NCBI GenBank assembly: GCA_051294375.1
Contig: CM119265.1
Span: 12,950,124 to 13,014,123, forward strand
Source: Paraspadella gotoi
Lineage: Eukaryota > Animalia > Chaetognatha
Reading direction: 5' to 3'
Length of the DNA stretch: 64,000 bases
Positions 1-54,900 of the stretch are shown here, piece by piece. Position 1 is the first letter of the stretch. Each line of letters starts with the position of its first letter. The position numbers and the translations under genes are program-made. The notes below the pieces were generated by a model. That model was not told where the DNA came from. It saw only the letters and a list, made by a program, of their open reading frames with translations, and did no database searches.

Positions 1-126
1 TTATTAAACAAATTACATAAAAACAATTTTAAATAGATATAAATTATTTAGATTTAAATTTGTATAAAATAAGTTAATAAATAAAAAGAAATAAACAAAT
101 ATTAAAAAAAATTTACTAATTGCTTT

Positions 127-5078: not shown

Positions 5079-6559
5079 CTAAACACCAAATTACTTTAGC
5101 TTACTTTATATTTTCTTTTCCTTTCATGCTATAGTTTCAGTTTTTAACCTCTTTAATCAACAAAAAAAAACTAAACCAAATGACTAGAAAATAATCCTGT
5201 AAATGGAAAGAATACAGAAATACAGAAAATTACTTTTCTTTAAAGAAAAACTTAATAAAAAAATTATAAAATACGTCAATTATTACAACCAAATTATGTC
5301 TTCAGTTGAGAAAAATGTTATTAATAATATTGGCAGCAAGGAAACCAACGTGTATGGTTTTTAACTTTTAATCTAGGCAAAAGCCAACATACAATCTTGG
5401 CCGGCGTCTCTGGAAACGGGACAGGAACGTTGGGCCGGCCTAGGAAATCATTTAACGAAAAAAAAAGGGCAGCCATTTCGATTTGCAGCCTATTGGCAGC
5501 CTGCCACGATGGCCGAGTGCTGCAGCCAACGAACTACGCACATAGCATCAATCTTTTTACATACCTTTGAGTTTAAACGAGAGGTTTGTAGGAACAAGGA
5601 CTAACAATGAAGGAATTATATTCGATGTTAATGCAAGAATTATAGATGAAGCGAAAAATAAGAAAAATTAATAGGAAAATTCAGAAGCCGCTGGATGGCT
5701 TATTTTCCCCACGAGCCACGTTTCTTCTCTCTGCCTGTCGAGAGACTGAAGGGAGTGAACAACGAATAGAAGAGAGAAATCCGCAGACAAAGCGCTGCAG
5801 CGACGAGGTTGAAACCTGCAGGCGAAGCGTCCAAAGCGCCTCGTCTTACAGGAAGAGGAAGAGTAAAACAAAATGTTCTTTGCCCAGAGAGGGAGCGTAG
5901 AAAAATAAAGACAGCAACGAATTGCGAAATGAACAACAGAATGTAAGGTTTATATGAACTACTTATGTGGATTTAAATAATTTCCATACTCAAACAATTT
6001 AAAATGTTGATAGTAACAGTGTTGAAATATTCTTAAATAAATATTTGTCACTATATGAGCAAATTTATTTTATTTTTCCTCATTTATGATTGTGAGATTG
6101 ATCAGATTAATTAGAAGCTTAGCTGACACAAACCGTAATATTAAATAAATTTACTTCCACTAAAAAAATCCCTTATGTTATGAAAACCCTTACATGAAAT
6201 TTTCAAAACTTATTAGAAATAAGAGTAGTCCAAGATTTTGAAATGTTCCCCCTGTTAGTGTAAATATATAAAAACTCAATTTGCATTGAATAATACAATA
6301 AAAAAAACCGACGCTGCTGATTGAAAGCTTGTAGAGACCTGCTACGTCATTATCTTATAAGAGTGATGAAGGCCCTAAACCACCAAAGCCTGTCCAAAGT
6401 CAGGGGCAAGATAGCTTATTTATTAAATGAATGGATAATTTTTATATTGGTTGTACCAATTTTATGACATGGACGACCATAATTAGCAAACGCTAGTTTT
6501 TTATACATTGATATTCATAAGAAGTGAAATCCTAGTAGGCGAAAGTAAAATATTACCAT

Positions 6560-23633: not shown

Positions 23634-26600
23634 CTATGATCCAAATTCAATAGTGTCTTCCCCGATTCTTTTGTAAGTGTAATTTCCTTTTCCATCCATG
23701 TATAGAAAGAACTCGTGATAGTTCCACAGCGACTTCCGATGTGATACTGTAAACAACGTAATCCCGACCTGAATGGAAAAAAAAGTTATGTGATCTTTAC
23801 CACTCGTGTTTTGGTTAAATCTATATCTCTCTCTCTAAATTTAGTGTTGTGGTAGCACGACTTAAAGCTGTCTCACTGCTGTCCGTCCTCAGCCTCGTCT
23901 CAATGGCTGAGCAGAAGGGTAGAGTGATGAAAAGATTGAGCGATTGAACATTATTTTTTTACTGCCTATGGACATGTAATCAATGAATTTAAAATCCTTT
24001 AAAATTTTTTTAAAGCATAACAGTATAGTAAATTCAATTATTTATGTAGTAATATCCTTCTAAAATCATACAATTTTAAAATATTTTTATTTTATTTTAA
24101 AGAACAGATTTGGATTCGCCATTTTTCACCTTTCCCCCCCCCCATTTTAAATGTTGAAGACGACATAATTTTTAATAACATGTTTTATATTTTTGATTTA
24201 ACTTTTTATGAAGAATCTGAATCTTTATAAAAAGTTTTACTATTTTATAAGGATATTACTATAAATATATTGTATTTTACTATTCTGTTCCCGAGACTAT
24301 AATAACACCCACGCTTACAATTGCTTAAAGTATGAATATCACGCCTATGCCCTACTTCTCTGGTAATGCTCTAGATTCACCCACTCGCCCACTCTCAGGA
24401 TTGAGGCCCCTGGGGAGAAGTCTGGTGGGAGGATCCTGTGGCAGCACAACTTAAAGCTGCCTCACTGTTGTACGTCCTCAGCCTCGTCTCAATTGCTGAG
24501 CAGGCTAAATCCTAAAGAGTCCTGGGTTAAATCCTCGGATATCCCAGTTCTGGCTTAAATGTGACGGAGCCGGTTTAAACATGCCAGTGACCGGAGGCAG
24601 TCACTGAGGGTCCGCAGCCCCTATGCCAGTTGGTGAGATACCCTGCGCCCCGTATATCTTCCCGTTGCCATAGTATCTTCTTTCTTGCCACTTAAGAATC
24701 GTGAAGACGAAAGAGAAAATATGTCGAAATGGAAAACTGGGCGTTACCTCTTTGCAATAAGCGTACATATAACCCTCAACGTCAACGGAAACTGCCGAGG
24801 TACATTCGTCGAGAATTGCGAACTGGGGTTTGTGATAAAAAAGGCGAGCCATGGCAATACGTTGCTTCTCTCCTGTTGCAAAACATTTGATTTTAAATGA
24901 AATATCACAATTTTATAAATGAAATAAAACTAAAGGCTACAATCAAGAAAGAAAAGACTTACCTCCAGAAAGAACGTCCATCCAATCACGCTCAGTGTCC
25001 CACCCAGTAATGTCTTCTCTGTCCAATAGGTACCTAAGTTGCACTTTATCCAACAAATCCGCCAGGTCCGCGTCGCAAAGTCCCTTCGACATCACGTCGT
25101 TGACGGAGTCAGGATAAATAACCTGATCTCGCAAAGTGCCGATAGGCATGTACGGTCGTTGTGGAATGTAGAAAAGTTTCTTCTTGTCCGGTTTTGTCAG
25201 CCTACAAAAGTTTTTATGTAGTTATATCCTGGGCTTACTAGGTCAGGTGATAATCATAATGATTTGGCGGTATTTTAATCACAGGGGGAAAAATGAGCAG
25301 GAAGACACAAAAAATTATAACTAACCTTCCGCCAAATAATGGCCATAATTCTCCAAGAATCCTAAACAGTGAGCTCTTCCCACAGCCATTAGGACCACAG
25401 ATAATGACGTTGTGTCCCGAAGTGACTTCAAAATTCATTGATTTGACTAGCATATCGCCGTTTGGCGTGACCAGAGGCACACCTTCGAATCGGATAACGT
25501 GATCACGATGGAGGATTTTTCCGGATCCAGGAATTAGCGGCGAAATCTGATACGCGATTAAGGAAATGAAAAATAACTTACTGGATAATGAAAAGAGCAT
25601 TTTTTATTTGTAAAATAAATTCTTCCTGGTCGGTGATTTTTTTTCTGCTTCTTATGAGCACAAATGTAAAAAAAAAATTTCCGAAAAAAAGACCGATGGT
25701 TTTTCGAATATTACACAACCACCCTTAACCTTAACCAGTAACAACCTCTAACCCTAACTACCCCTAACCTAAACCACCCTTAACCTTAACCAACCTTAAC
25801 CTTGACTAACCCTTGACCTTAACGACCCCTAACCTTGAATAACCCTAAACTTAACCAGACTTTACTTTTTTTTCCCTGTAGTATCAAACCACAGTAATGA
25901 TATATGGGAATAGAAAAATAACCGATCGGCTCGGTTCCTGTCGTCGAAAGTAAAATGGTGTATTTTATTGAAACAAACCATTTGGAAAGTATTCTTCCTA
26001 TCGCCACCAGCGTGGTTCTCTAACTCGCGAGCTGTTGCGGTCATTGTCCTTTCGTATTTCCCCCGATTTAAGTCGTTGAGAACGTCCACAAGTGAGCTGA
26101 CTCGAGCCGTGTAACTGGGAAGAGTTTGTTGTGACATATGATGTGACAAATGCAAATTGTTTTAATTATTGCTACTTCGTACTAACCCAGCAAGCTTGGT
26201 CATTTCACGACCAGCCAAAACTAATCTCCCGATGGCTTCGGCAAGTCGAATCAACATACGACCGCTGAGGTAATATTCTTCCAACCTTGTGGACAATTGT
26301 AGCAAAATCAAATAATGATAAGATGTAATTAATAAATTATAAATAAATATTTAATAATATAATATAATATTTAACTCGCCTTTCTTTGTGCGTCTTGTCA
26401 AAATGCTTTCCGCTGTAGGCAAGAAAAGGTCGAGAAACGACAAAAAAACCAACTACAGTTGCTAAGTATTTCGCAACTATGTTGTCCACCATTCCCATTG
26501 AGAATTTGAAAGTAATAACGTCACGAAGATGATCTACTAGTCGTTTAAACACCTGCATCAGGGTTATGTGCTCCCTTTTGTTACCTGCAACAGAATCATA

Positions 26601-28118
26601 AAATTATATGCATACTTATCGAAAACGTTTATGCAAAAGCATAATTGGGGAATCCGGATGCCCAATGCATAAAAATGATTCAATTTATTTTATAACCATT
26701 AATTGGGATACTGGGTATAAGAGCATAGTGAAAGTTACGTAGGAAAATTCTAAAAGTCAATTATGAACAACATACCATCAGTGAAAAAAAAATCCATTTC
26801 ATGTTTTTTTAATTTTCGTAGTAGGCTATATTTATATTATATATATATAATAATATAATATATCCTTATGAAATCGAAAAATTTCAAAAAATATTTTTTT
26901 TAAATTTTGATTGCAGATTTGAGTTATATTTCTTTATATCAACTGTTCATGACGAATCCAAATCTGCAAAAAAATCTTACAAAAAACTATTTTGAAATTT
27001 TAATACTTATTGGATTAGTACTATGTATAAATATGGCCTACTGCGGAAATTGTATAAAATTTATAATACATTTTTTTATATATAAATGTTCTTTAGTATA
27101 ATGTTGTTCGTTCCTTCCTTTTAGAATTTTATTAAAGTTAAATTTAGAATTTTTACTACGTTTTACTGGGTATACCTTGATAAAAAGCGATTTCCTCACT
27201 ATTGGTGATGACCCTTGAATTAATGAAGCGAAATTCGCCTTCATGCTGTTGCTCCAGCATGGTCATTCTCGCTAGAGGGCGACGGAGGTGGGTAAGCAGA
27301 AAACCGGACAGCGCCAAATAACCCAACATGAGCACAGGACCCTGTGCGCCAATCGTTCCCGTCAGCTTGTAGACATAAAGTGCCACGTCCAACAGAGGCT
27401 TAGACAGGTTTGTATACAGGTCAGAAACTGAGTTGCAAAACTTTTCCACGTCTTGTGTTAAAAGTTGATCGGGATTGGCAATGCGGCTATCCATGTTGCT
27501 CATCTTGTAAAACGTAAAGCCCTGCATATACTTGGCATAAAGATGTTCCGAGAGTTTGGCGCGAAACCGAAGTTTCATCTCGTTAAGCCCAATTTTAAGG
27601 ACGTTGTTGACGAGAGCGACGACGGGCATCGACATGAAGTACTTTATCACTCGCGAACGAAACAGTGTCAAATTTTGTTCCACGATGGCGCTTTCGATGT
27701 TCGTTGTCGACTGAGGGATAAAATTATTTTTGTTGTCCTCGATATAAAACTGACTTTTTAAAAATATTTTTTAAACCTGTATCATCCAAATGTCACAATA
27801 AGTTCGGGCCATCAAGGATGCGGCAACTAAAAGAAGGTAGGCAGTCTCCTTTGAAAAAGGTGATGAAATCAAGACTTTGAGGATGGCGATTATTTGTTGT
27901 AGAAATTTCGAGTCGACGGCAGCTTTATCCTTTGACCTGCCGCCAACGACGCCGTCCACATCCTTGGCCAGAAAGACGCCAGTGTCCCGAGTCTTTCTGC
28001 GTTGGATTCCATAGGCTTTCAACCAAGCGTAACCCAGGGCCACGCCTCCGCACGCTGCTAATGCAGGCGCCTTGTATTTGTCAGCAAAAACAGCAAGTTT
28101 GCTTATTGAGGGCGCCAT
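23634..28118 (-). CDS. ABCD3: Peroxisomal ABC half-transporter PMP70
   Basis: MAPSISK start, [38 protein letters not shown] (EAA loop), Walker [41 protein letters not shown], and C-terminus TVSHRKSLW...TIEFGS*. Confidence 0.96.
23848..24672 (+). mobile_element. Disrupted LTR-internal-LTR element (partial 5' LTR at 23848, intact 3' LTR 24437-24672) carrying a twister motif
   Basis: 23848-23915 duplicates the start of 24437-24503. Termini are TGTGG...GCCATA; flanks GTGT/GTAT form a near 4-bp TSD. The internal part 24340-24436 shares motifs (acgcctatgccc, ctctcagg.ttgagg, gatcc|TGTGG) with the 47-kb internal region. Confidence 0.7.
24550..24629 (+). ncRNA. Type-P5 twister-ribozyme-like motif
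   Basis: CTGGC ttaa ATGT GA CGG AGCCGGTT T^AA ACAT GC CAGTGAC..GTCACTG AGGG TCCGCAGC CCCT at GCCAG. P5, P2, P3, P4, T1 (CGG/CCG) and T2 (GC/GC) are all Watson-Crick; the first conserved L4 A is replaced by C. Confidence 0.82.
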
Positions 28119-28471
28119 AGCAAAAACTGCGCGAAAGCTAAATGCCCCGGCGCTGAAAAATAAAAACAAAATAAAAAAATGGGTACCATATCACGAAAGT
28201 TAAAAAACTAAACGACAATAACTAAAATGACAGATAGCCTCCGTTCAGACTACTCTGCACATTGCAGTGAAGAAAAAATTTACAATATGGGGCAACAATT
28301 TAAGAATTTAAAAATGACGAACGATAAAGACAGGGTGTTGTGATTAACAAAAGCAGTAAAATTCTCAGTTCGTTGTTTTTATTTGTTTCTGATAGTACAA
28401 GAAATAAATTTAAATTCTTAAAAAATACGAAAGTACATTGTGAGAATATAAAAAATTCATTTCGTTTAAAT

Positions 28472-31400
28472 TTATATTCTTGGCAAACAGAACTCATCAA
28501 AATTGATTATCCTGTACTCCTGCTCAACTTCGGGCAAGTCTCGATGAAGAAGTCTTTTTTTCAGTTGGACTGGCAATGGTAAATTGTAGACGACCCGAGG
28601 TAATTCGCGACCATAGGTACCGCGCAGCCAATTAGAAACAATCGTAGCCAGGGTGGGCGGACGACTTCCACTTTCCATAAGTTCTTGCCTGAAGTCCTAA
28701 AAAAAGTCATGAAATATAATTAAAAGCGTTATTTATTCGCTAATATCCAAAGAGTAAAACCTGTATGAAAACCAACGCACCTTATCCTTTATCAAGGCTT
28801 CTGGCGGATTTTCGATAATCCACTCTTGTTCACTCTTATCATGTAGGGGATAGCCACTCTCAATTAAAAGTCGAGCTACCTCGAAATGTCCTCGGTGACA
28901 TGCAACGTAAAGTGGCGTATGTGGAGAGGAATAGAGGTATTGCACGTTATTGTAGCCGCTCTCCATCTGTTCCGTGCCGCGTGAGGGTACGTTGAGAGGG
29001 AACGCTTGAAATCTTAGCAATTGTACAAGAACTTTTAGATGTCCGCGGCAACAGGAGTACCTGAGGGATTTTAAAGGTGGATCAAGAATTACATATTTCC
29101 ATTCTGGTTGTACCAATTTCATATTATTAATATTAGTAGTTTCCAAAGAATTACCAGATAGGCGTCACGGCATAACTGTTTCGTACAGAAGGATCAGCGC
29201 CATTATCCAAAAGACAAGAAACCATGTCAATTTGACCGTGATAAGCAGCGTAATGGATGGCGCGATCTGCGTCTTTGTCAGCATTATCAATCAAATGGCG
29301 ATTAAGCGGCGCCAGCATCAATACCGCTGGCGTGTTCTGGCGAAACGCAGCGATCCCGAGAGGCGAATTTTTGTCCAGGGTAAGGCAGCATGGATCTGCT
29401 CCTAATAGAAGAGGGGTAATGCATCGAAAAAAATATTAAAAGCATAAGGATTGTCGCAATAGCATAGCAAAAATCTGGACCCATAACAAACTTTGATACT
29501 CAAAAACTAAGTTTTATATATAACTTGGTGTAATATACATAACAAATTTAAAAAATTGGTTACTTTTACTTTCGCCGACCGGGGTTAGGGTGGTTAATAG
29601 TGATTTAGGGTTCTTTTAGGGTTAAGAGGGTTTAAGGTAATATTTTTTTTTTAAATAAATATTTTTAAATGATTTTTCAAAAGCCGCCATAACCGCGGTC
29701 GGCGAAAGTAAAATATAGCCAAGTCGTAGCGTGAGCTTTGAGTTTGATTTATTAAATGAATGAATAATTTTAATATTGGTTGTACCAATTTCATACAATG
29801 ATTTGAAAGAAAGTGTAACAATTTTAAAACATTTAAAATAAAAAATTAAATGTACAAAATATTAATTTATATTAATATAAAATTACATTAAATTAAAACA
29901 ATTGAATACAATAATCAGAGGGAGAAGGAGAAGGAGAGAGAGAGAAAGAGCAAGAGGGAGAAAGAGGGAGAAAGAGAGACGAGTAACTTTCAGCTCCAGT
30001 CGCTGCAGAGCTCAACTCGTTTTTGGACGAATTAGTGACGTAGAGACTGAGAAAAAGAGTATGTTAGCTGAGCACGAACATGAGATGGCTAGAGTCTTTA
30101 AGAGTGTGAGAGTAAAATGTGAAATCTGTGGACTCGAGCTCGATAGATCCAATCGAGCTATTATAGCTCGATTGGATCTATCTAGCGCTAGGCACATGCG
30201 ACGACAGCATTAAGAGGCAGTCCCTCGTAGGACGAATGCCTGTAAAATCAAGTCAAGAAAAAGAGAAATAATTATAAAGAAAGAACTACGTACTAATTTT
30301 TATTCAAAATGTTCTAGCTAATATCTATAACGTAGCTAAATTTTTTACGCCGACAATGACGTTTATTGGGACCATCGTCCCAAAATCGATAAAAAAAAAA
30401 CAGACGTAAGACGAAAAATATTTACCTTTTTCAAGCAGCTTGGCTACAACCCCATTAAGATTACACCAGCAAGCAGAATGAAGTGCAGTATAGTGGTCAT
30501 CTGTTCGACCAAGCATGACGTCAAGGGCGTCGTTTTCAAGGAATAGATTACATGCTACGGGGACTCCATCATTACGAGTGAATACATTGATCGCATCCAT
30601 TAGCGCCGTCTCACCATAGTCGTTGCGTATATTGGGATTTGCGCCCCACTTAAGTAGCAACCTTGAAATTGCATAAATATGTACATAAAAATATAGAAAA
30701 AATTTACCACAATAAACTTGCATTTAAGTGCGTCGGTCATATAACTTTGCGAAAAACATACAAAATACAAATATTGGGTGTACTCCATTATTTAGAAATA
30801 GGGGTATCATACTATGAAGTATATTGAGAATCATTACTGTACTGGGGATACTAGTTGTTCATTATATCCTAGTTACAATAAAAAAAATTATAGACCCAAG
30901 TCTTTGAGAATTGTACCCCATTTTTGCTTGAAGTTTGGTTAAATCACCAAAATTTTATAATTATTAAAACCTTTTTAACAATCAAAAGTATGCTCATTTT
31001 CATTTTAAATATTCATTTCCAAAAGTTTTTTTATAAAAAAGTATTTTAAAACTAAAAAAATATTCAAATTGGCATTTTAAAATAATTAGTATTTGAGCAA
31101 AAATAAGAAAAATTTTAAAATTTGAGATTTTATCAAATCTTCATATCTTGTAACGGTTACTGAAAGCAAATAAGATATCAAGCTTCTCCTTCCAAATAAC
31201 CTTAAGACTACCAAGTACCAAAATTCATTAAAAATGTATTTCATAGAATTTACTTAATTGCTCACACTTCTGATATCTTATACCATATTTTATACCAAAT
31301 GTGCAAAACTATCTTGTGAGAAGACCAAAATCTAGATTTTCTATCAAAAAATCTAGATTTTTTGACAGAAAGCTAGAAAACTAATCGTTTTTGGCGAATC

Positions 31401-34400
31401 CCGGCCATCTAAACCATTTCAATATATTTTCCATGGCATGGTGACAATTTGCCATTAGAAAACACGTAGAGAATTTTGCTTTTAGGAAATAAAAATCTGT
31501 AGCCAAGACATTTGCGGTTTCTAAGTAAAAATTTTATACAATTCAATTATGATTTTCCTTTGTAATGAGTGAAGAAAGATGAAAGTCAAATTCAAGTTCC
31601 TCAATCAGAAATAAAGAGAAATTAAGCTTTTGAAATTTATATCTCTTCTAATGAAAGGTAGTCATAATTTTATACCTTATAACTTTAGCTTGGTTAATAT
31701 GTCATTCTTTGCATAGTGCTTTCCATAGATATCCATATTTGGCTAAATTTTACTTTCGCCGACCCTGGTTTTGGCGGCTTTTGAAAAACTATTTAAAGAT
31801 ATGTATTTTTTTTTAAATTTTAAAAAATATTACCTAATTACCCTAAACCCTCTGAACCATAATTATTAGGGCGTTTAAAAATAACAAAATATAACAAATC
31901 GAATAAGGTACATAGCTATTTTAGTGTAATTAAGTCTGTAGAATTTGTTGATAACCATTTTTTTATAAAGTTTCATCTTTTTTGTCGGAAATGGCGATTT
32001 TTGTAGCATATAAGGTACTACTCAAATGGAACAAACATTGTAGAGTATAAAAAACTCCAATTATTAAAATTTTATAAAAGCCATATTTAGCTTACATATT
32101 ATGAAAATAAAGACCCATATAAATATTTGGGTAAGTTTATTTACAAATTTTATATTTTATTAACTGTTTTTTAATTATATTTATTAATAAATAATAATAA
32201 AAAATAGGCAAAAATTTTTTTAAAAAATTTTTAAATTTTTATAACCGGATTTGAATTCCTTACAAAAAGTTGATATAAGAAAATATAATCCATTTTAACA
32301 AATTCTTTCATTAAGTAGGTAAAAAATATTAAAAATTATTTTTTTATTTAATTTTTTAATTTTTGGATTAAAATTTGAGGCAAAATGGTTTTTGTTTTAC
32401 AACGAATTTTTTTATTTTTCATAGAAAAAAACGGACATGTTTTGGCTTTAGTTGCAAGCCTTCTTCAGCGTTAAACAATTAAAATTATAGTTTTTCTGAA
32501 TTTTGATCAACTTTTAATCAACTTTGATATAATTTTGATATAAAAATTATTTTTTCTTATATCAACTTTTTGCAAGGAATACAAATCCAGGAATAATTTT
32601 TTTTAATTTTTTTTTTAATTTTAAATTAATTTTTATTCATAATTATTAATAAACATAATTAACTTTTTATAAAATATAAAATTTAAAAATAAACTTACCA
32701 AAATATTTTTATAAGTCTTTATTTTTATATTTCAAAAGCTCATATTAATTTTATAAAATTTTAATAATTTAATTTATCATAACTTATAATGGTTTTGCTA
32801 TTTTATTACAATTTTATATATATTAAAAATCGTCATTTTTGACAAGAAAGATAAAATCATACAAAAAATGGTCATCACCATCGAATTCTACAGACTAGTT
32901 TACCCTAAAATAGCTATGTACCTTATTCGATTTGTTATATTTGTTATATTTTATTATTTTTAAATGCCCTACTAACTACTAAGGCGTAGTAAAATTCCTA
33001 AGTTTAACTTTAATTAAAATTCTAAAAGTGAGGAATGAACAACATTATACTTATAAACATTTATGTATAAAAAAAATTTCTAATAAATTTTATAATTTAT
33101 ACTAGTACTAAACCAATAAATGTTAAAATTTCAAAACAGTTTTTTCTAAGATTTTTTGACAGATTTGGATTCGTCATAAAAAGTTGATAAAAAGAAAGAA
33201 AACTCTTTTTGAAAAATTCCTTCATTAAATAGGTCAAAAATTAGAAAAAGCTTTATTTTAAGCTGAAAATTAACTTTTTATATATTAAATATAGTTTTTT
33301 AAATTTTTTAACTCACTTAATGAAAGAATTTTTAAAAATGATTTATATTTTCTTTTGACGAGGAATTCAAATCTGCAATCAAAATTAAGAAAAGCCTATT
33401 TTGAAATTTTTCGATTTTATAAGGAGAGTACTATATATAAATATAGCCTACTGCGAAAATTAAAAAACAAAATTAATTTTTTTTACAAACTAATGTTCAC
33501 TGATGGTATGTTGTTCATAATTGACTTTTAGAATTTTTGTATGTAACTTTCACTACGCCTTACTAACTATCCCTAACCCTAAACCACCCCTAAACTACCC
33601 TTAACTAGTGGTAGCCGACCAAATTCAAATTTTAATAGAAACAGCATTAAACTAATCCATTATTGGTATTAGTTATTGTGTTAAAATATTTTTTGCAAAA
33701 AAGTCCCGAACCATGAGTAATTTGTTAATTAAAATTATTTTATTGCTATATAATGTCCAAAAATTTTTTTGGATATTTGAAATTTTTTAAATTGATTCTG
33801 ATAGAACTCAAAAAGTTAACTAAAAATATAATTACAACTTTTTAAAATGTTGATGTTTTATTATTTTATCCATTTTTCTCAGAAATGTATGAAGTTTCAT
33901 TTGGGAAAGTTCACAAATTAAACTTCTGACCCACCCCTTTGACAAAGTTTGGCTTCAAACCATCTTTTTCCCTTTACAGTTACAGCAAAAAAAAACAAAC
34001 AAAAAAACAAAAAAACCTAAATGATATAATAATTATTCATAAAAAACGTGAATATCTTGTCTAAAGATTTCTCTTTTCAAAAAGTAAAAATCTTTACACG
34101 TTTTTGCACAGACGGACAGACAGAGATGTACATCATTTTTTTTTTTGCATAATTTATATAATTCTGTGTTCTGACATGATATAAGTGATTTATAGAGTCG
34201 GGATCTGCTGATAAGCAATTCAGACTAAAAAGAAAAATAAAGCGAGCTCTAGGGACAAGAGGCTTTCGGAATCTCATAATTTGAAGTCCCATTTATAATG
34301 CTAGCATACCGTAATCCCGTTTGTAATTTTAAAAAAGTGAAATTTCCCTTTCATTTCTAAACTAAAAACGAGGTTAGAAAATTCTCTGGAGATGAGTAAT

Positions 34401-36974
34401 TTATTTCTCCTGCCTTGTTTGATAATAAAATCTTTATCAAATGCCAGAAGAAAATATTAACGAGTTCTTGAGATGCAAAGCTGTCGGAATCGTAAATTTT
34501 ATTTTAAGCGATATTTTTGCCTAACTAACGGCTTTAATAGCCTAATTAGAATATTTTTAGACTTATGTAGAGTTTGAAAATACTTTTTTATGAAAATATC
34601 TTTTGGAAATATATATCTAGAATGAAAATAAAAATACCATTTGACTGTTATAATTTTCAAAGACGTCCATATTTTTTTAAATTGTAACTAGGACAGTAAA
34701 CAACCAGAATCCCCAGTACAGTAATAATTCTCCATATACTCCATAGTATGACCCCCCTTAGTTAGCAAACTACTAATTTTATTTTCAAACATTGATCAGT
34801 CTGTTCAATTAATATAAATTTCATGATAAGTACCTGATCATGTGAGCATAAACATCGTTTTCGGAGGATATGGTTGCTTGTGCCAAAAAATGAAGTAGCT
34901 GCGTCAAGAGGATTCATTGAAATTATTTTTTAAATAACTTGCTTATTAAAACGTGACCGTAATTCTGAGTGTTCACGTGACTACACAATTATGAAACATT
35001 CACAAGAAGCATTTACCGATACATTATCAGTCTGCTGATTCTGTAATTATGAATTATGCCGCATTGAATTTCTGGTCATATGATTACTTTTTTTGGGTCA
35101 TTATGTGACTGCACAACTGCTAAATTTGACCTGTTCACCAAAAAAAAAACCTTTATAAAGTAATCAATACTCAAAATATACAAACAAAAAAAATATTAAA
35201 TGCATGGTGGACTAAAATCCGCCAACCGTTCATCAGCGGCCATTGGTGCCAGAGGCAAGTCATTCGCCTCCCAACCCAAAGGTCCGGGGTTCTTGCCCGG
35301 TGGTCGCCTAGCAGTTAAGAGGGGCGGGGCGCTTAACCCGCCTATAACACGGTGTTACAGCCTGATCCGAAGCTCAGGGACTGCTTATATTGAACGGTTC
35401 TGTCACTAACACATAACAATAATTACTGTCTCTTCAAATGAATGGATAATTTTTATATTGGTTGTACCAATTTCATAGTATACTCACTACTCACTACTAA
35501 ATATATCGCATTCGCAATCTTAAGACTTACCGTGTCATTATTTTCTGCCTTGTGATTCGGATCGGCACCGAAAAATAATAAAAGCTTAATCAATTCGAGA
35601 TCCTGTTCCGTCAAAGCTAAATTGAGAGCCGCTTCCCTCCCCCACCCAACGGAGTTGGGATCAGCACCATCGACTAAGAGGCGTTCAACAAGGGCAGGCC
35701 CTGCAGGCAATCCGCGTAACAAAGGGTAAGTGAACTCTTCGTGTGGCCCGTCGGGAACATTAAGTGGAGCCGAAACGGGCGCCCGCAAAAGAGTTTCGAT
35801 CATTTCTGCGTCCCTATTTCGTGCCACAAGTCGATGCCACTCATCCAACTCTTCTAATTTTCGCTTTCGTTCGGGGAAGACGTATTTGTCGCGAGTCCAC
35901 GAGCTCTCGCGTATCGACTCGAGGAGGAGTTCGATTGCTTGGGACAAAGGCAAGATGTGCCAGTCAAAAGGTGCATTGGCGCCCCCGTCTGAAGAAAAGG
36001 CAAAGGTCTTGAGGTCGGCACCGGCGTCGACCAGGGACTGGAGGCAGAGAATTCTCCGGTACATAATAGCGACGTGGACGGGTTGAAGACCGCAGGCGCT
36101 TGTTTTGTTGCTGACGTCGGCGCCATTGGTAATCAACTTATCGACGAGACGGTGGTACCCCAGCATCGACGCAATGTGAAGAGGATACGTGCTCGCCATT
36201 AGGTTCATCATTTTCGGGTTATTCAATAACGACTCAAACTGCCCCATTGTTTGACACCGGCGAGCGGAGTCGAGAAGAAGTTTTACACCGTCTTCCTTCC
36301 TGAAATTGGTAGGACGAGACATATTTTAAGAACTTGATGAACTTTTTGTTTGTAAAGAGCTTGAGACACTTTTACAAAGCTATTACCAAAAAAATATATC
36401 TCACCTGCATCTACAGACTCTAATTGGGCCTAATGGTCCGATATCCTTCACTTTCAAAGAGAGAAGGAAAGCTCGAATGAGATCGTCGCTCTGCTGCTCG
36501 CTCTGTACGCTGCTAGGCGGCGAAGGTTGGTCCGTTTCCATGGCATCTGTTGAACTGGTCAAGAAGCAGTATATAACGATTTGCATTCACGTTGCGCGTG
36601 AGCTGTATCTGTTTGTGATATCGCTATCATCGATGATATAAAATCGAGAAAACAAATCACCTTACAGTTCCAGCGGTTCGGGGGTAAATTCTTTCTCTCC
36701 ATCCCAAGCTACCAGGATAAAATCCGGCTAAAGTGTCTATTTCAAAGCCAACTTCATAAAATTGCCAGCAGGAACAGGTAATGCTACTGCTGGTACCATA
36801 AGGTATCCGTCCATGAGAAATGCCGTAACTAGTCTCACCATTGGAGATGGCGCTAAGAAGAAATCGATGATTAGCAAATTGAGAGTTTTCAATAAGTTTT
36901 GACTCAACGGCTTCCAGGTCGCCAGTGACTAACGCCTCGAAAAAAGAAGATTCTTCTTCGACGGAGATGGTCAT
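28472..36974 (-). CDS. Ankyrin repeat and SOCS box-containing protein (ASB family)
   Basis: Multiple ankyrin repeats (YPLHIASMLGYHRLVDKLITNGADV, GETALMDA, TALHSACWCN, TPLYVACHRGHFEVARLLIESG) and a terminal SOCS box PPTLATIVSNWLR...NLPLPVQLKKRL. Exon structure is only partly resolved. Confidence 0.85.
29565..29713. mobile_element. Helentron/DINE-like non-autonomous element with telomere-like tract
   Basis: Inverted ends ttttactttcgccgaccg / cggtcggcgaaagtaaaa enclose degenerate (TTAGGG)-like repeats. Related ends occur at about 10625-10730, 31748, 37126/38460, 44930, 51465-51560 and 54790. The superfamily assignment is an inference. Confidence 0.6.
30801..34757. mobile_element. Nested transposon cluster inside an outer TIR element (ASB intron)
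   Basis: Outer TIRs of about 80 bp (30801-30880 / 34681-34757). Inner palindromic element 31867-32971 (TAGGGC..GCCCTA), element 32980-33562 (TAAGGCGTAG..CTACGCCTTA; flanks CTAACTAC/CTAACTAT), and 33607-33955, which is repeated at about 60576-61178. Confidence 0.75.
32430..32472 (-). ncRNA. Minimal type I hammerhead-like motif (degenerate)
   Basis: Minus strand AACG CTGAAGA A GGCTT gcaacta AAGCC AAAAC ATGT C CGTT. Stem I, stem II and palindromic stem III are present, but catalytic G12 is A. Confidence 0.55.
35204..35437 (+). mobile_element. tRNA-Gly-derived SINE-like element fused to a twister-like ribozyme
   Basis: 73-nt tRNA-like head at 35236-35308 (acceptor GCGGCCA/TGGTCGC, T-stem CCGGG/CCCGG, TCGCCTCCCA anticodon region), followed 2 nt later by a twister motif. 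Second copy at 57526-57759(-). Confidence 0.8.
35311..35384 (+). ncRNA. Type-P5 twister-ribozyme-like motif
   Basis: GCAGT taa G[A]GG GG CGG GGCGCT T^AA CCC GC CTATAACA cgg TGTTACAG CCTGA TCCGAAGC TCAGG g ACTGC. The conserved GA is GG in this copy. Confidence 0.8.
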
Positions 36975-38558: not shown

Positions 38559-40940
38559 TCAGTCAGACGCGAAAAAATCTTTTAAATGCCGTAACTGGTG
38601 CCTCATTATTCCTATTTCTTGCTTAAGAATCGGCGGTAACGGAGCTTCCATCAGCTCTTTTACGTAAGTTTTCAGTCCTGAAGAACGTCGCTCCTCAAAT
38701 GGCCAGGAGAGAATGAACATACAAGCAAATTCCGCGGCCCCAATTGCTTGGACCGACTCCGAGGCTGCACCACAATCTGGGGTGTCGCAACGGTTTTCTG
38801 TGGGCGCAGATGAGCGTCCAAATTTCGAACGGAGAGAAGGATCAATACGTTTAGCTACTACATCGTATACTGGCAAGGATTTTATGGAGGAAATTAAATC
38901 CGAAAGAAGGCAGTTATCCTAAAATTGAAATTGAAGAGCCAGTAACTTTTAAATCATTTCAATTCTAATTTTTATGGAATTTATAGATTTTACTTGCTTA
39001 GTTAGTAAGGAAAGCAAAAATTTAATAGGTCTACCGACAAGCGATTACTCCGATAATCGTACCAGGGGAGTTATCCCGTGAATACTTCGTGCATCTCCAC
39101 AAGAATACCCGCTTCTAGTAGTTAATAAATGGAAATCGTCGTCGACTTTCTCGAAAAGTCTCATAACAACGTCGACTGCCTCTTCAAAGACAGGCGGCCC
39201 TATTATTTCTGTTTCTAACGATGAAATATCCAAATCCCGGATAAATTGTTCGACGACCGAACGAATTTCCTGAGGCGCATTCACGCTGAAATATTCGGAA
39301 GCTTTAAAGAAGAGATGAGACTCGGGAGCAATGATAGAATCCAGGCGCTGCACCAAAAAAAAGCCGCGGCTACGCCCAGTTGTTACGTCCACTTCTAACA
39401 TGGCTTCCCATAGTAACGAGAGGGGTACCCAATGAGGGGGGTACTTGAACCTAGCGGTGTCCAGAATCAGAACCATGTCTCGGCCGAAATGATATCCGCC
39501 AACTGGTGAAAAGTGTCCACTCCCGGTTTGTGAAAGAATTCGCCGCGAGTAAGAGCAAACCACAAAAGCATCGTCACGGCGGCACAATTCTTGTAATAGG
39601 TCACGGAATTTACAAATATCATTTTCCAACACATTATCGGGTCGTATCGTTTGGACCTTAAGGCCGTTGCATGCTGCCAGACAGGAAAACTCCTCCATCG
39701 TAATACCATCGGTAGCGATTTTAGTTAAAGGCACGCAGCAATCCAGCATATTCTCGTGGTACCACCTCCATGGACCCTTCCAAACACGCCCGGGATCAAC
39801 GGCTAAAATCAAAGAACGAAGAAAAAGGACTAACTCGTAAGTGAATTCTTGCAAAAGCTTTCCAATCTTAAGAAGAACTGCAAAATTCTCACCCAATGCG
39901 TTAAGCGTCATAACCAGCGTGGTCAGGCCACAAAAGGCCGGCTCGTCTTGAGTCCTAAACTGGGCGGCCAGAGGAAAGTAACAATTCATGAACCCATCAT
40001 TCAATGCTTCAGCGAAAAGCTTCTTGCCTTCTACAGACCCAAACGCAATACATGTTTTGGGGAGAGTCCGTCTAGAAAACAAATTAATTAATTAAAGTTC
40101 GGCGATCCTAGATTTTTTTACATTCGAGAGGCTAATAAGAACAGGAAAAGAAAAGAAAAGAAAAGAAAAGAAAAGAAAAGAAAAGTAAGAAAAGCAAACA
40201 ATATCGGATCTGCCCACGATCATTATCGGTAATTAATAAATAATTTTATTTTTACTTTTTCCTTCCGAAAAATTATCCTCCTCCATTCCATTTTGTTCCT
40301 CTTACTTTAATTCATTAAGAAAAACCTTGCTCTTCGTTTTCCCAAAGACCTCTGGAGCGTATTAATCTCCAGGAATGCCTAAAGTTTAAAGCGTGAAATT
40401 GGGATGGAAAACGGAAGAAAAAACAGAAAAAAAGTTTTAAAAAAATTAACATGCAATAAACTGGGCATCTAATAAATGCTGCAGATTCTGGCAATCTAAG
40501 AAATTGATAAAAGACCAATTATTAAGATATATCTTAATAATTGGTCTTTTGCTATGCACATTAAATATTTAAGAGTAATTTAACTTTTTACCAATTAAAA
40601 ATTTAATTGATAGAGAATTACAAAATTGCAGAATTATAAATATTCAAAATGTAAGGAAGGCAGACCGATAAATAGACTGAAAGACCAACCAAAAACTGAC
40701 TCATTGCGTTGCTCTAAGAGTATTCGCGGCGCAACTAAAAACTATTTAATGCAATATCCAGGTACATTTTTAAACAATTTAAATTTAAGAACCTTACCGA
40801 TAAAATTGTCGAACACTTTCACCATCGGAGCTTTTTGGTTGAATTGCATCGTCCACTCGTGACTTGCTTTCACCGCACTGAGGTTTTCCGCCACAACAAT
40901 CAACTTCTGTAACACATTTGCTTCTACTCATTACAGACAT
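38559..40940 (-). CDS. pcs-1: Phytochelatin synthase (glutathione gamma-glutamylcysteinyltransferase)
   Basis: Exon 1 ([22 protein letters not shown]...QFYR) splices to [23 protein letters not shown]. Catalytic triad motifs [14 protein letters not shown] and [13 protein letters not shown] are present, plus [16 protein letters not shown]. Last exon 38559 to about 38918. Confidence 0.95.
40145..40185. repeat. (AAAAG)n microsatellite
   Basis: About 8 perfect units in PCS intron 1. Confidence 0.9.
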
Positions 40941-41500
40941 TTTTGAATGATTAAAAGAAAGAGCCGAAACGAAATAGTTGTTGCAATTTTGTGGGCGGAA
41001 AGCCAGAGACGAGGCATAGTTTTCATAAAAATATAAGCTCCTGTGCAAAATCTTCATACCTCAGAGATCATCTTGCAAGAGTACCTTTTTAATATCAAAT
41101 CAGGATAAAAAAAATATAGACAAGATTACAGATGCAGATTACAGGTGTTGGAATTTTCAAAATTAAAATGAGTGTACTAGAGAGAATATGATCTCTCTGT
41201 TTGACAATATGAAGAATTAAACTTTAAAAAAATGAAGTTTTATATTCTGTAGCAGAGGATCTAGATCTTCAGAAACAATCGTACGAATCATAAAATGTAT
41301 TCCTCGATCTGAGATGCAATTGAGCCACGTCGAAGGTTTGCTTATATTGATATCCTGGTATTGAATGAAAAAGGAAGAAATTTAATTACTGAAGTGACCG
41401 AGAGGAGAGAGGGTCTACATGTCTCTCTGTGATTATGGATACTGGATAGCCCCACACTTAGTGTGCCCAGTGGGTCTGGAAGATTTTTCCGTCAGTTGAT

Positions 41501-41574
41501 TTGCTTTCCGGAACTACGGATCCGGCGGTAGGCTTGCTACCGGTGGTTTAACCGGCCCGTCACTCTTTTTGCAA
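41501..41574 (-). ncRNA. Type-P5 twister-ribozyme-like motif
   Basis: Minus strand TTGC aaaaa G[A]GT GA CGG GCCGGT T^AA ACC AC CGGTAG caagc CTACCG CCGGA TCCGTAGT TCCGG aaa GCAA. T2 is AC/GT (compensatory vs GC/GC). It lies in a GC-rich island at about 41390-41580. Confidence 0.82.
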
Positions 41575-43837: not shown

Positions 43838-46800
43838 ATGGCAAAACTCAGTGAAAAACTGATTCTTGAAAAAGCGGGGCCATCAGGAGTCACGTCATGT
43901 GGGGAAGTGATCAATCTCGATCTGTCGTCAATGCAGATTAAGGTACTGCTGAATAATTTGATTACATTATTTTGTTCCTTTCTTCAAAGTTAGCCTTTAC
44001 GACAATTACCAGGACATTGACGCTTCTTTGTTCAACCAACTGGTCAAGATCGAAGACTTGAATCTTTCCAACAACAGAATTCGGGAGTTTCCAAATGGCG
44101 TCATTCTACCATCTTTAGAAAAACTCGACCTTAGTGACAACACTATTGCTTCCGTCAATTTTCTCAAAAACTTTCCAAAATTAAAGAATATCGTTTTGAC
44201 CGCCAACCCCATTGAAGAAGCGGAGAAGTATTTGGCAGTTTATCTGCTGCCTAAGGTAATTGAGATGTCAGTTAAGTTTAATTCAGTCGAGTCTTGCCTC
44301 TGGATTACTACCCGTTTGATATTTAACTATTATTAGATTATTAAAAACTTTTAGAATTTTTTGTGTAATAATTTTTTATCTCGCCAGACGGGCCTAGGCC
44401 AGTCTTGGGCGTGATTAATGTTTACTCTTAATAGTGACGTCCTTGTCACGCTTTTTTACAATTAGATATTGTAAAAGTTTGCAATTAGATATTTATTAGA
44501 AATTTAGATATGGCTTCTCAGCATCAACATCTTTTAAATTGACATGTTTCATTGTGATACAACTATTTATCTCAATTCTTTTATTTATATTAATTAAATA
44601 AATTTAATTCATTCATTATATTAATTTCATTTATTCAATTCAATTCATTTTATTTCGTTTTATTCATTCATTGCATTTTTTATACGTTTTCCTTTCAATG
44701 ATTCCTTATCATCGCATCAATAATTCGTTATCATCGCATCAATAATTCGTTATCATCGCATCAATAATTCATTATCATCGCATCAATCATTCGTTATCAC
44801 CCCATAAATCATTCGTAATCATCGCATCAATAATTCTTTTTGTTTTGTTTAAATACTGAGCGATTGATCATTGGGATGTTAAGATTTTTTCATTATTTTT
44901 ATAATAATAATAATAAGCGCAAAAAATCCCAGTCAGCGAAAGTAAAATTTTACCCCAATTTCCTTCCCTAGTTAAAAAGCATCGAGGGATTGGACATAAT
45001 GGAGGTTCGAAAAAAGTTAAATGATGTTGAGGCGCGCGTTAACGATGAGATTCATGCAACATGGGCCAGCAACTTCGAGGAGGCTTACGAAGAGGAAGAA
45101 GAACTCATTGAGTCGGACATTGATATTATGTACTCAAACTTCGTCAAGATCATCAAAAAGACCATTATTTTACCAAAAAGCGAGGAGAAGTTTTTACGAG
45201 TAAGTTATTCACATTAACCAAGTTATAAACTATTGGTTTTTATTTATTTAACATAAATTGATAATAAAAAGAGAGCGGCACGAATCGATACAAATCAGTG
45301 AAATTAAAGACCTCGGACAATGGATATTGTTATAATTATATTATGGTCTGTTAGTGCTATTTAACTATGCATACGCACATTTAATTAATGTCTTTTTAAT
45401 ATTAAAGCTAAGGCAATCTTCGTTTTAGTTATACGACGAAATAACTCAAATCCAATCAACGAAGTTTTTCGAGAAGTTTCGTAACGAGACAGAGTTAGTG
45501 AACCGGAAGAAAAGACGCGTGGAGAAAGACAAGGCGAACGAAATTGCCGACTCGGGTGTAAAGAGGGGTGCCCAAACGAAAAAAGAGAAACGGAAACTAC
45601 GTACGTAGGAAAATCGTTTATTAATCTGATGAGAAATTGAGCATATTTGCTTTTTCTTTCTTAGAAAACGCGGCTCTGCTCTCCTGCTCCGACTACGAAC
45701 CAGTCCATTTCCTCAGGTGCCACTCATTCAACAACGACCCCGCTGACTCAAAAACAAAGATATGGCGTTGCGCCTTTCAACCAAAGCACAAAAACGGGGG
45801 CGTCTCCAACGGTGGTTCTGATGGACCCAGGTCTGTCTATTCTTAAGACTTGCTCTAGTCTTTTGCAAGCTATTCAATATGCATTTACTATATAAACTTT
45901 GCAGGATTGTAGCAACTTGTGGTGGAGATTCCATTTGTCTCATTGATTGTTCAACCGGAAAAGGTAATGCGATTTTATATTGGATACTGCTCTAGTAATA
46001 CAAAGTAGTTTCCTATACCATCAAATACTTATGACATGATATTATCATATTTAAAGGAAAAAAAAATTGTTACAAATATTTTTTTTTTTAACAAATTAAA
46101 CTTTCTCTTTGGATTCAAGGCGCAATGAAAAGAAGGTCGAAACACAATGATATATAATATATACAGGGGTGGGACCATATATCGAGACAAAATTTAAAAA
46201 TTCCTAACGCTAAAACTGTTAATGATTTTCGAAATCTGAATAAAGATTCAAATTATGCTCTATCTTAGCTTTTATCCGATATATTAATCGTTATAAAATT
46301 CTTTGATATAATGCTTATTTTGATGAAGCAAAGGCAACTTCTCTGTTTTCTCCGCGCGGTTTGGAAGAAAAACTTAAGACTACTTAATGTTTAATCCCAT
46401 TCTAAAAACAGGCCAGATAAAATTATTAATGAAAATGCTCATTTATAGTATAAGAATACTTTTAGCATAGTATACATTACATTTTTGTCAAAAAAATACT
46501 GAGGTAAGTAAGGTTCAGGTAAGTTACTATTATAGTCCAATTTTAATTAAAACTGACCTTTATTTAAAAATTTAATAATGATATTGTCTGATATGTAAAT
46601 TTATCATGTCAGATTTCAGAATGCATGATAAAAGGGTCAAGTCAGCAAAAAATACATGAAGTATTTGACGATTTAAGCTTATTCCTTAAAATCTTTTTAA
46701 AATTTTGTTTTACTTACCCTATAGAAGTTTAAATAAGTTTCATTTGGATGGTTATAAAAATCTGAAATTAAAAGAAATTAAAGAGAATTTACATACCACT

Positions 46801-51904: not shown

Positions 51905-54900
51905 CTAATGTGTAATAAACTCCCGATGAGTGAAACCTTCTTCGGCAAGTCTGTTCAGCATTGGCCTGAAAAATAAAACAAAAATTAATACTGATTCTGA
52001 ATCTTAATAGACTTACCAGAATTTACCGGTAAATATGTTGCGCCATTGGTACCACCATTCCCTTGTCCTGAATCTCTCCGGTGAGCACCATCTTGGCAGC
52101 TATAGCGCATGGATAGCCAACAGTTTTAGCCATAGCAGAATATCCCCCTTCGTGGTCATCGCCTGAAAAAATACTGCTCTATCTTTTTTTTTCCCAAGAA
52201 TCAATTCACGAATAATAACGAGTAAAAAATATAGGCGAGAAATTAAATACTATTTAATATACAGTTAAATTACTCAGTTACAAACCGTAGCAAACAAAAT
52301 CGAGATGCTTAATTTCCTCCTTTTTGTCGGGCCATTCAACGTGAACGTCGTGGCGCATGATAATGATGTCCCTTTCTCCCTCGTCGTAGTTGAGCCTTCG
52401 CGCCAGAAACGAAGAAAGGCTGTCAAGTGGAGTCCCCTGCTTCTCAATCGGTTCACTGTCAACTAGTCCAAGGTCTTCCACCACCTGAAATACAAGGATA
52501 GCAAGTTGCACTTCAATCCCAAATAATAAATTATAATATAGTACTTAGAAGTAGCTACATAATAACTCCGACTAGTGTACCTTCAGCCGGTCAACGTTTC
52601 CTCCCAGGCGATCCAACAAAGCATCCTTGAGGTTTTCCACAATAATGTCGGGCGGCTTTCCAACAAGATGGCACATGAACTGTTTCCATGTAATCTCGGG
52701 CCCGTTTGGATGTAGTAGGGGGTGAGGTTGAGCGTCAATAAGACCCAGTTGCTGCAGGCCCATTATCGCATTGGCATAACCCTTATATCTGCAAAATATT
52801 TGTACAGAGCTCAAAGCAATGCTTTTCAGAATGCAAATTTATTTATTTATTACCTGAGAGTTCCTCGTATGATCGTGTCAGCGTTCTGTATTCCATATTC
52901 TTCTCCATAAGGAATAGAATTTCGATTCGGAAAACCTTCCAGATTAAAACCCGGCAAGAAATCCATAGATTGGCCACATTCCATAACGGCTCCTCCCCCA
53001 GGAATATCTATGATCTGTTATACAACAAAGATGAGGATTTTATACCAAATAATGAAATATACCTATTAAATCAAATGTGTTTTTAAAAATATATAAAGGA
53101 TTCATATTAGAAAATGCTCTTTCGTTTTTTTGAACCGAGAATCGGTTCCGATCAAACTACTAGACCGACATTGATAAAATTTTGCATGAACTAACTATAG
53201 GCCAATAGAAATGTGACTATCGGGGAGATTTTTAAAATTTGACCTACGACCCGAGATATGGGCCCCAAAGAGGCGAGCTGAGGTGGGAAAAAAACGGACA
53301 ATTTTTTTGCAAATTTTTAATCCCGAACAGTTTTTATTTGTCCAGAAAAGTAAATCTATTATTGTGAAAAAATAATTTTTGCCCGATTTCCAGGATCAAG
53401 AACAAATTGAACATAGGAGGTTTATGCCAGCTTTGGTGAGGAGAGCAAATGTTCAAAACAAGTTTGAGCAAACAATGTCGGATCTCTGCCCACGATCATT
53501 AGCGGTAATTAATTAATTAATTAATACAAACTACCCCGTGTCCGTTCGCGAGTGACACCAAAAAAATCTTTACTATACTTTATATATTTCATATATAATA
53601 TAATATATATATATATATTTCATTTCGTGTTTAATTCAATCCCTATACTTTGTATAATTTTTTATCCAAAACAGTAAAATTAGCGAAAAAATAACATTTT
53701 AAGCATGTTCTTGATTGCATTAAACAAAAATTTTATAATATATAAATTATATCATAAGAAATCCCTATTAATGGTCTAATGAATGGTGTAACGGAATTAA
53801 AGTAATGTTTAGAAATTTTTGAGTAATGATTTTTTATTTATTTTTTTCTTTGTAAATCTTAAGTTTTCTTTGTATAATTCATCCAATTAAAAAAAATGCT
53901 GTCCTGACCATGTTTTTTATTGTCTTGAATAATTATTTTGTATTGTAAGGATTCCCAGTTAATGCTTCATTTAATGGTGTAAATGAACTTCAATTATTTT
54001 AAGTAATTAATTCATAATGATTTTCTTTTTTTTTAATTCTGAAGATTAAATTGGATGACCATTAAGTAAAGGTTATTTTACCTAAGTAAATATAAAATTA
54101 ATTTTATGAAATTAAAATATAATAAACGTTCAGTAAAAATAAGAGAATAATGAGAGAATAAAATTTAAAAATATTCATCCAATGAGGAATGGTAAGCATT
54201 TTTTTTTTTTGGCACTCGCGAACGGACACGGGGTATATAAACTAAAATAATAATTTGATTGGGTAACTTTACTATTCGACGTCCGTAACCAACCTTAGGT
54301 ACCTTTGTTAATCAATTTAATTTGTTTTCCCTCTCGCGTCGAGACTCACTTTGCGCAATAATATTAATTTTTTTTTGTTCAGTAATACAAATTTTATAAT
54401 TTTATAATAAATAATAATTGTTTTAAATTTATTTTAATTGCTATTTTTATGTTTGAGGTAGAAAATGATTTGTCTGTTTACGTACGAGTTTTATAAATAA
54501 ACTAATTTCGGACATGTTTCAGCTTCAATGTAAGCCTTCATCAGAACAAAAACGAATTGATTTGCGAAACAAATATTTTCACAGACTTTCTCTCTCTCTT
54601 CAAACTTCTAAGTCTGTAAAAATATATTTTTTAAAAAATCAATTCTTTTTGCGCTGATTGAGGTTTAAATTGAAGCCGAAACATATCCGAAATATGTTTC
54701 TTAACTCGTTATATTTAAACAAACAGGGAAAGGAAAAACAATATCAGTCGCTCATAAGAAGCGAAAAAAAATAACCGACCGCAAAATCCCGGTCGGCGAA
54801 TGTAAAAATAAGCCATTTGATTAATAAATAATTAATTTGATCCGAAATGTTTTTAGCTCTTTTCATCACTGACCAGTGACCAGTGACCACGACAAAAGCA

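Follow-up and report, generated by a model that had tools for sequence, protein, structure and literature searches.

A tRNA-like unit beside a type-P5 twister fold in a dispersed, fixed-ended element of the chaetognath Paraspadella gotoi: a candidate solo terminal repeat

Introduction

Helenus elements are miniature retrotransposons with terminal repeats (TRIMs) that carry a tRNA-like unit within a long terminal repeat (LTR) of about 120-323 bp, have gypsy-type primer-binding sites (PBSs), produce 4-bp duplications of the target site (TSDs) in animals and are frequently left as solo LTRs (PMC10886601). In bivalve Helenus families the tRNA-like unit starts at LTR position 21-45, and most of the animal Helenus LTRs compared have a T-run after it (PMC10886601). 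In plant LTR retrozymes, which also have 4-bp TSDs and solo LTRs, it is a ribozyme that the LTR carries (PMC4918200), and this LTR-borne ribozyme delimits the unit RNA (PMC4918200, PMC7761336). What is said here of these and most of the other published systems applies to the portions of each paper covered. The subject of the present work is a 234-bp element, termed family A, found in a stretch of 64,000 nucleotides of Paraspadella gotoi DNA (GenBank assembly GCA_051294375.1, contig CM119265.1, positions 12,950,124 to 13,014,123 of the forward strand), the whole of which is called the window. The element has a tRNA-like unit followed almost directly by a type-P5 twister fold and, by analogy with the two systems just described, it may be a solo LTR left by a Helenus-like TRIM whose mode of action is that of the plant LTR retrozymes, a reading whose chances are about evenly poised.

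A dispersed element with fixed ends

Copy 1, the proposed solo LTR, is at 35203-35436 on the plus strand, where it is delimited by sharp ends and unrelated flanks, and copy 2 is at 57527-57760 on the minus strand. That there are two copies in the window agrees with the original prediction; they are 95.3% identical over 234 nt, with 11 differing positions, and the element begins Y-A-T-G-G and ends TTCA. The prediction had seen no clear TSD, and here it is overturned. An end-offset scan reveals a 4-bp TSD with its left copy at 35199-35202 (+) and its right copy at 35437-35440 (+) of copy 1, and copy 2 has one at the same offsets (57761-57764 and 57523-57526). The duplication flanks both window copies at identical offsets, and of the 6 x 7 offsets scanned 35203/35436 is the sole pair of ends giving 4 bp in both, so the element is taken as 35203-35436; duplications of 3 bases are present in both copies at two neighbouring offsets. 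The chance of a shared TSD was put at 0.0017 by a control with 3 x 3 offsets in AT-rich DNA and, with 6 x 7 offsets scanned, the true chance is a few-fold higher. An empty site for copy 1 is provided by a second repeat, family B, since copy 1 is hosted by a 5′-truncated family-B fragment at 35194-35477 on the plus strand (35194-35202 plus 35437-35477). The nine bases on the left and the flank on the right fuse into the sequence of the other family-B copies, with four bases doubled.

The spread of family A was followed in Logan contigs from four runs of organism A (three studies, one possibly the window's own source) mapped on 35050-35650. In run X1 the summed depth is about 1e6 over the element and 42-81 in its flanks, a ratio that is not a copy number; with up to 31-fold overlap allowed for, the depth ratio is about 400-1,400 to 14,000-44,000 in the three DNA runs. 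Loose contig ends cluster at two places, 35204 and 35436/35437 (125 and 267 of them in X1), and among the rows listed the flanks beyond them are unrelated (agreement 0.40-0.45). The consensus beyond the loose ends agrees with the TSD in all three DNA runs, with ATAT plus T before the element and A or C, then TAT, behind it. Given these sharp ends and unrelated flanks, family A is a dispersed, fixed-ended repeat whose copies number in the hundreds at least. The majority are 90-99% alike, and an 82%-alike subfamily covers nearly the same ends. CpG sites account for 10 of the 14 minor variants of the C>T or G>A type (P 4e-5), which is like decay after insertion. No head-to-tail joint is present among the best 15 of the 91 joints, all 15 of which have single-copy depth, and both window copies are single; nor does the window hold short 3′ fragments of family A.

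Within the element a 7-bp hairpin close to the 5′ terminus (35205-35224, +) precedes the promoter-like part and, taken alone, is not stabler than shuffles (z -1.3). It adjoins the left arm of a 9-bp inverted repeat (35224-35232, +) whose right arm, at 35391-35399 (+), ends 37 bp short of the end of the element. The earlier observation that such a repeat encloses the tRNA-like unit and twister is upheld, as is the lack of a poly(A) tail. The 3′ end is a fixed TTCA with no tail of any kind, and no T4 run is present on the sense strand.

The tRNA-like unit

The tRNA-like unit spans 35236-35308 (+) in copy 1 and 57655-57727 (-) in copy 2. A fold check bears out the description of a 73-nt unit that keeps its acceptor and T stems, of 7 and 5 bp respectively, and has a broken anticodon stem. 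The T loop is out of register, and a 6-bp stem at 35251-35271 replaces the D and anticodon arms. An A-box-like segment is at about 35243-35255, and the B box, with GGTTC, is at 35288-35297; the A at 35294, which is equivalent to A58 and completes the B box, is present in 93-99% of the Logan contig depth. A variant at 35304, amounting to 28-48% of the depth, turns a G-U into a G-C in the acceptor stem with pairing kept. The unit had been considered the 5′ head of the element but begins 33 bp inside it.

At its default setting ARAGORN finds no tRNA in the family A copies, and Rfam finds neither tRNA nor twister at either of them, even with E up to 10. With a cut-off of 85 ARAGORN does call tRNA-Gly(CCC) in both copies (score 85.5 in copy 2) and also makes a spurious AT-rich call, scoring 85.05. 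BLAST of the unit against phage sequences gave eight matches at chance level, none of them to a tRNA. To judge by its sequence, the unit resembles a tRNA but is not a functional one. What survives of the initial assignment to tRNA-Gly is the tRNA-like shape; default ARAGORN and Rfam make no call, and 'Gly' derives from the anticodon position alone.

The twister fold

The twister begins 2 nt past the tRNA-like unit, at 35311-35384 (+) in copy 1, with its counterpart at 57579-57652 (-) in copy 2. Its location and the predicted U^A cleavage at 35334/35335 are as first reported. Pairing and domain order were compared with a published domain table (PMC8501958), and the order is that of the P5 permutation: P5 and a linker, then P2 and GA, three bases of a pseudoknot, a segment of 6 nt, U^AA, P2 again, two more pseudoknot bases, and last P3, P4 and L4. 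The conserved core of twisters (GA, U^AA, the L2 dinucleotide and the L4 loop) is present in this order. In copy 1 the helices are P5 (35311-35316/35379-35384), P2 (35319-35322/35337-35339, with one bulge), P3 (35342-35349/35353-35360) and P4 (35361-35365/35374-35378), GA is at 35323-35324, and the pseudoknots are L1-L4 (35325-35327/35367-35369) and L2-L4 (35340-35341/35372-35373). P2 has 3 bp plus one bulged base and is paired in all seven aligned rows. Both P2 and the two pseudoknots have both-sided changes between families with pairing kept; the pseudoknot pairs were read by script, since MAFFT misaligned the P4/L4 half.

Each window copy is damaged. In copy 1 the A of GA is missing (35324) and one position of P3 is mismatched (35344); copy 2 has one broken L1-L4 pseudoknot pair. 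In all four runs the intact base dominates at the broken positions (98.5-100% A at 35324, G at 35344 and 87-97% G at 35369). The original prediction, that the copies carry different defects which a consensus would repair, is sustained for GA, P3 and the L1-L4 pseudoknot, which are intact in most of the genomic depth, but P2 needs no repair. A strict pairing descriptor, tuned on these motifs, matched the window six times and none of 40 shuffles; a looser one gave nine window matches, five of them defect-free, against 16 (three defect-free) over 30 shuffles, a mean of 0.5. One of the nine, at 46853, is chance-like. The segment is only 6 nt long, and no intramolecular P1 hairpin of 2 bp or more was found. 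As modelled, family A carries a type-P5 twister fold with intact helices in most genomic copies, and its cleavage is predicted.

The same variant in other families

Family B has 12 copies in the window, 23-322 nt long, with a common 3′ end that forms a small hairpin; 5′ truncation is frequent and seven of the 12 are under 70 nt. The copies are at 124-518 (-), 6318-6465 (+), 57150-57473 (+, the longest), 59080-59267 (-) and 60423-60571 (-), together with seven short 3′ fragments. Twisters of the same variant are at 57369-57411 (+), 188-230 (-), 6362-6404 (+), 59144-59186 (-) and 60487-60529 (-). The family has a partial tandem at 124-518, no constant TSD and, as in family A, a TTCA 3′ end. By its anatomy family B appears Penelope- or Naiad-like, as 5′ truncation, partial tandems and a shared 3′ end are described for Penelope-like/Naiad elements (PMC8557442). 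The remnant of a reading frame in family B has no relative, or only repetitive proteins, so that a Naiad identity of B is not established, and a motif scan of the window gave no clear match to a remnant of reverse transcriptase, integrase or GIY-YIG.

A third twister of this variant, fully paired and in single copy, defines family C at 41499-41574 (-), where P1 (41551-41556) is self-complementary. It has no tRNA-like unit upstream, and TTCA occurs about 110 nt downstream. A metagenome record, L001 (1-1097), consists of a 974-nt unit plus a 123-nt terminal repeat, has the same twister with a perfect palindromic P1, and is possibly a circular RNA or a retrozyme. It alone of 13 matches in a metagenome pattern scan passes all pairing checks. 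Two pattern scans for the variant in bacterial genomes yielded no match; viral contigs yielded one with the first pattern, the same motif as in the failing L003, L011 and L012, and none with a stricter pattern. Looser viral scans gave at least 211 loci and at least 146 cores, and seven of 146 have a self-complementary P1, which is the chance rate. Three phage motifs, L215, L205 and L031, fit a P5 twister with just 6 nt at P1 that are not self-complementary. With Rfam Twister-P5, four of the five twister-bearing family-B copies score 25.6-25.8 bits and L001 24.2 bits against a cut-off of 37.6. As the variant is below Rfam thresholds, such ribozymes are probably under-counted in animal genomes.

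A self-complementary P1 segment

The 6-nt segment at 35328-35333 (+) is self-complementary and is the predicted interface of a dimer. The P1 segments of the variant are GGCGCU, AGGCCU, GCCGGU and CAAUUG, and are self-complementary in all four families (A, B, C and L001); the outer pair is broken in one decayed family-B copy. Each of the three pair positions varies on both sides and 95% of the cells pair, a shuffle test that is inflated by relatedness. L001 and family C turned up only after the idea of self-complementarity had formed, and both conform to it. A random hexamer is self-complementary with a chance of 0.053; if a 2-bp stem is assumed anyway, the inner pair alone is informative, at about 0.25 each. 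Within one molecule the P1 of family A would have 1 bp and a 4-nt loop, at +5.6 kcal/mol, versus -8.3 for the 6-bp duplex between two copies, and the duplex energies for the four segments are -8.3, -9.1, -8.9 and -3.0 kcal/mol. Cofolding, which cannot model pseudoknots and is not counted as evidence, forms B and L001 dimers via the P1 region and A dimers via P3 and P5.

Self-complementarity with both-sided changes in four of four families suggests cleavage by dimers, and dimer-assisted cleavage of the variant is, to go by these sequences, slightly on the probable side. It has a parallel in the palindromic stem III of Penelope hammerheads and in the dimeric amphibian hammerheads (PMC6765202, PMC7229834). 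Tending the other way is that none of the four best-paired phage P5-like twisters with a 6-nt P1, among 146 cores, is self-complementary, that twisters without P1 do cleave, though inefficiently (PMC8501958), and that action as a monomer with a short P1 is possible.

How the element may move

A 3′ end in CA and a fixed TSD of 4 bp are the hallmark of gypsy-type integration, and it is this combination that leads to an LTR. A further consideration is that a transcript from an internal promoter could not restore the first 21-33 bp unless a second unit lay downstream, which also points to an LTR. Family A would then belong to a small non-coding retrotransposon mobilised by a gypsy-type integrase. 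RNA polymerase III (Pol III) would initiate within the 5′ LTR, at its tRNA-like promoter, and read through a copy with LTR, internal region and LTR. The twisters of the two LTRs would pair by their self-complementary P1 and cut at 35334/35335 in each, to give a unit-length RNA, probably circularised, whose 3′ part would restore the tRNA-like unit and the hairpin upstream of it. Reverse transcription and integration would rebuild both LTRs, and recombination between LTRs would leave solo units, the two window copies among them, to decay by CpG-type changes. A more specific version, in which family A is an animal LTR retrozyme, a Pol III TRIM with a twister in place of the terminator whose cleavage requires a dimer paired at P1, processing and circles thus arising only from transcripts with both LTRs, is rather doubtful.

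The Helenus data contain a possible relative of such an arrangement. The LTRs of wasp Helenus-2_SyJa and Helenus-2_SyUm (277 bp, TSD 4, internal part known) show, by eye, a motif like a type III hammerhead, its loops complementary, immediately past the tRNA-like unit (PMC10886601, Data S1). If the more specific version were true, these motifs would mean that the swap of a ribozyme for a terminator arose more than once. No ribozyme is named for Helenus in the portion of that paper's text covered, and five twister L4 motifs occurred at four places in the portion of its sequence file covered, none in a twister context, where line breaks and other variants can hide matches (PMC10886601).

Several points weigh against the solo LTR. 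Only two pairs of flanks are readable for the family A TSD. The 3′ end is CA, yet the 5′ end is YA and then TG rather than TG itself, and among the Helenus LTRs compared nearly all start TGT and one TA (PMC10886601). The A box deviates from the Helenus TRGCY..YGG pattern, and the element ends have no real terminal inverted repeat. Neither window copy has a PBS, polypurine tract (PPT), second LTR or internal region beside it, although absence of a two-LTR structure beside both is expected if they are solo LTRs; across the genome, too, none of two-LTR copies, internal region, PBS or PPT was seen among the best 15 of 91 joints and 12 of 77 joint inserts. That 5′-truncated family B, with no constant TSD, has the same twister variant shows the variant at home in another kind of element. 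Membership of Helenus is unproven and is not assigned, given a 5′ end of YA-TG and a two-LTR form absent from the data seen.

Alternatives

It had been proposed that the cassette is a Pol III-driven, self-processing short interspersed element (SINE) or a retrozyme monomer. That proposal stands in so far as the unit is mobile and non-coding, with a self-cleaving ribozyme fold and probably an internal Pol III promoter. A SINE does not fit, with the tRNA part internal, no tail and a fixed 4-bp TSD, and neither does the monomer of a tandem retrozyme, with sharp ends, unrelated flanks and no head-to-tail joint among the best-supported joints. A modified form, still somewhat unlikely, is a Sm-alpha-like Pol III SINE-type retrozyme with a twister, spread by target-primed reverse transcription via a Penelope-like (Naiad-type) helper from rare tandem masters or circles. 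Sm-alpha has just this layout of a tRNA-derived promoter and then a ribozyme (PMC6765202, PMC4918200), Penelope-like hammerheads with a palindromic stem III cleave as dimers (PMC6765202), and L001 has the variant in a 974-nt unit with a terminal repeat. Family B, into a fragment of which copy 1 is inserted, shares with A the twister and the TTCA at the 3′ end and also has 5′ truncations and a partial tandem (124-518), as for Naiads (PMC8557442). But the 5′ end of family A is sharp and it lacks short 3′ fragments in the window, whereas seven of the 12 B copies are under 70 nt; its TSD is 4 bp in both copies and that of B is inconstant; head-to-tail joints are missing among the best 15 of 91; and the TSDs reported for metazoan retrozymes are longer than 4 bp (PMC7229834).

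Movement at the DNA level would require no RNA step to account for fixed ends, and family A might on this account be a non-autonomous Helentron-, Replitron- or MITE-like (miniature inverted-repeat transposable element) repeat with a captured tRNA-twister cassette, the ribozyme being a passenger that is intact only because the burst is young. Most copies being 90-99% alike, with CpG decay (10 of 14 variants, P 4e-5), is in keeping with this, and Helentron ends resemble a terminal hairpin adjoining one arm of the 9-bp inverted repeat. The other arm, however, is 37 bp from the end, and a 4-bp TSD without terminal inverted repeats suits neither rolling-circle elements nor elements that have such repeats. 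The twister helices and acceptor stem are intact in the majority, the 35304 variant with 28-48% of the depth is neutral for pairing, and the 82%-alike subfamily covers nearly the same ends; movement of this kind is improbable. Far less probable again, and largely refuted, is a host tRNA or other housekeeping RNA gene with its 3′ trailer trimmed by the ribozyme. Trimming of tRNA 3′ trailers is known for the theta ribozymes of phages, and the twister is indeed 2 nt past a unit with intact acceptor and T stems, but the cut would be 26 nt beyond the unit, no default or Rfam tRNA call is made, the anticodon stem is broken with the T loop out of register, and the family is dispersed with TSDs.

Genomic setting

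The window consists of animal DNA rich in AT, and its genes are compact; they include those for CPSF2, ABCD3, phytochelatin synthase, and ankyrin and leucine-rich-repeat proteins. Copy 1 is on the strand opposite the ankyrin-repeat reading frames at 35453-36325 and 28733-30723. The phytochelatin synthase gene is at 39045-40091 (-; Pfam PF05023, E 9e-83). At 3480-3600 (-) a B-box-like motif is set in a long GC-rich hairpin in an intron of the KH-domain gene and may be a further tRNA-derived repeat. Several long inverted-repeat pairs and a seven-copy repeat ending CGAAAGTAAAA, at 31739-32953, 54775-55887, 26921-33205 and 7448-7753, are probably MITE-like; a piece resembling 7448-7593 sits 100-350 nt upstream of both family A copies. 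Minisatellites are present at 44673-44848 (22-nt period) and 25711-25872 (about 16-nt period).

Comparison with known systems

Each part of family A has a precedent, and the combination is new as far as the literature search reached. In the portions of the literature covered, including PMC5680766, PMC13725137 and PMC10085705, with subscription literature and the original twister papers largely outside that coverage, there is no twister in an LTR or TRIM, no element with a tRNA promoter and a twister, and no dimeric twister. For the ribozyme itself the comparison is with the type-P5 twister of Rfam RF02684. The variant matches it in how P2, P4, the two pseudoknots, GA and U^AA are arranged and paired, and differs by a 6-nt self-complementary P1, a P2 of 3 bp plus a bulge and a long P3; family A has no Rfam hit. 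A twister with reduced P1 in an animal retroelement is also known from the T-variants of the Perere-3 long interspersed element (LINE) of Schistosoma; these are of P1 type, are placed 5′-terminally in a coding LINE and take P1 from the TSD, whereas that of family A is P5-type and in the middle of a non-coding unit (PMC8501958).

In its promoter and then ribozyme arrangement family A is like Sm-alpha (PMC6765202). Ribozymes with a short helix that act as dimers, as predicted for family A, are known from the hammerheads of amphibians and of Penelope-like elements (PMC6765202, PMC7229834). Sm-alpha and the metazoan non-LTR retrozymes are tandem, with hammerheads and longer TSDs, whereas family A occurs as dispersed single units with fixed ends and has a twister. 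Plant LTR retrozymes (Cervera et al. 2016, PMC4918200) and family A have in common an LTR ribozyme, on the solo-LTR reading, a 4-bp TSD, a lack of coding capacity and solo LTRs; the plant ribozymes are type III hammerheads, there is no tRNA-derived promoter, and the circles demonstrated there are only predicted here. A likeness in layout, again on the solo-LTR reading, is to the Helenus TRIMs and TRIMp3 (Kojima 2024, PMC10886601), with a non-functional tRNA-like unit in a short terminal repeat, a B box with GGTTC, the 4-bp TSD of animals and common solo units. Family A has a twister instead of the T-run and a 5′ YA-TG, and its two-LTR form, PBS and PPT were not seen.

If the solo-LTR reading is true, family A would unite TRIMs with a tRNA promoter and LTR retrozymes with a ribozyme, the latter being confined, in the literature covered, to plants and to hammerheads. 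Eukaryotic twisters, whose roles are barely known, would also gain a concrete job. A twister that dimerises through its self-complementary P1 would be the equivalent of the dimeric hammerheads known from Penelope-like elements and salamanders.

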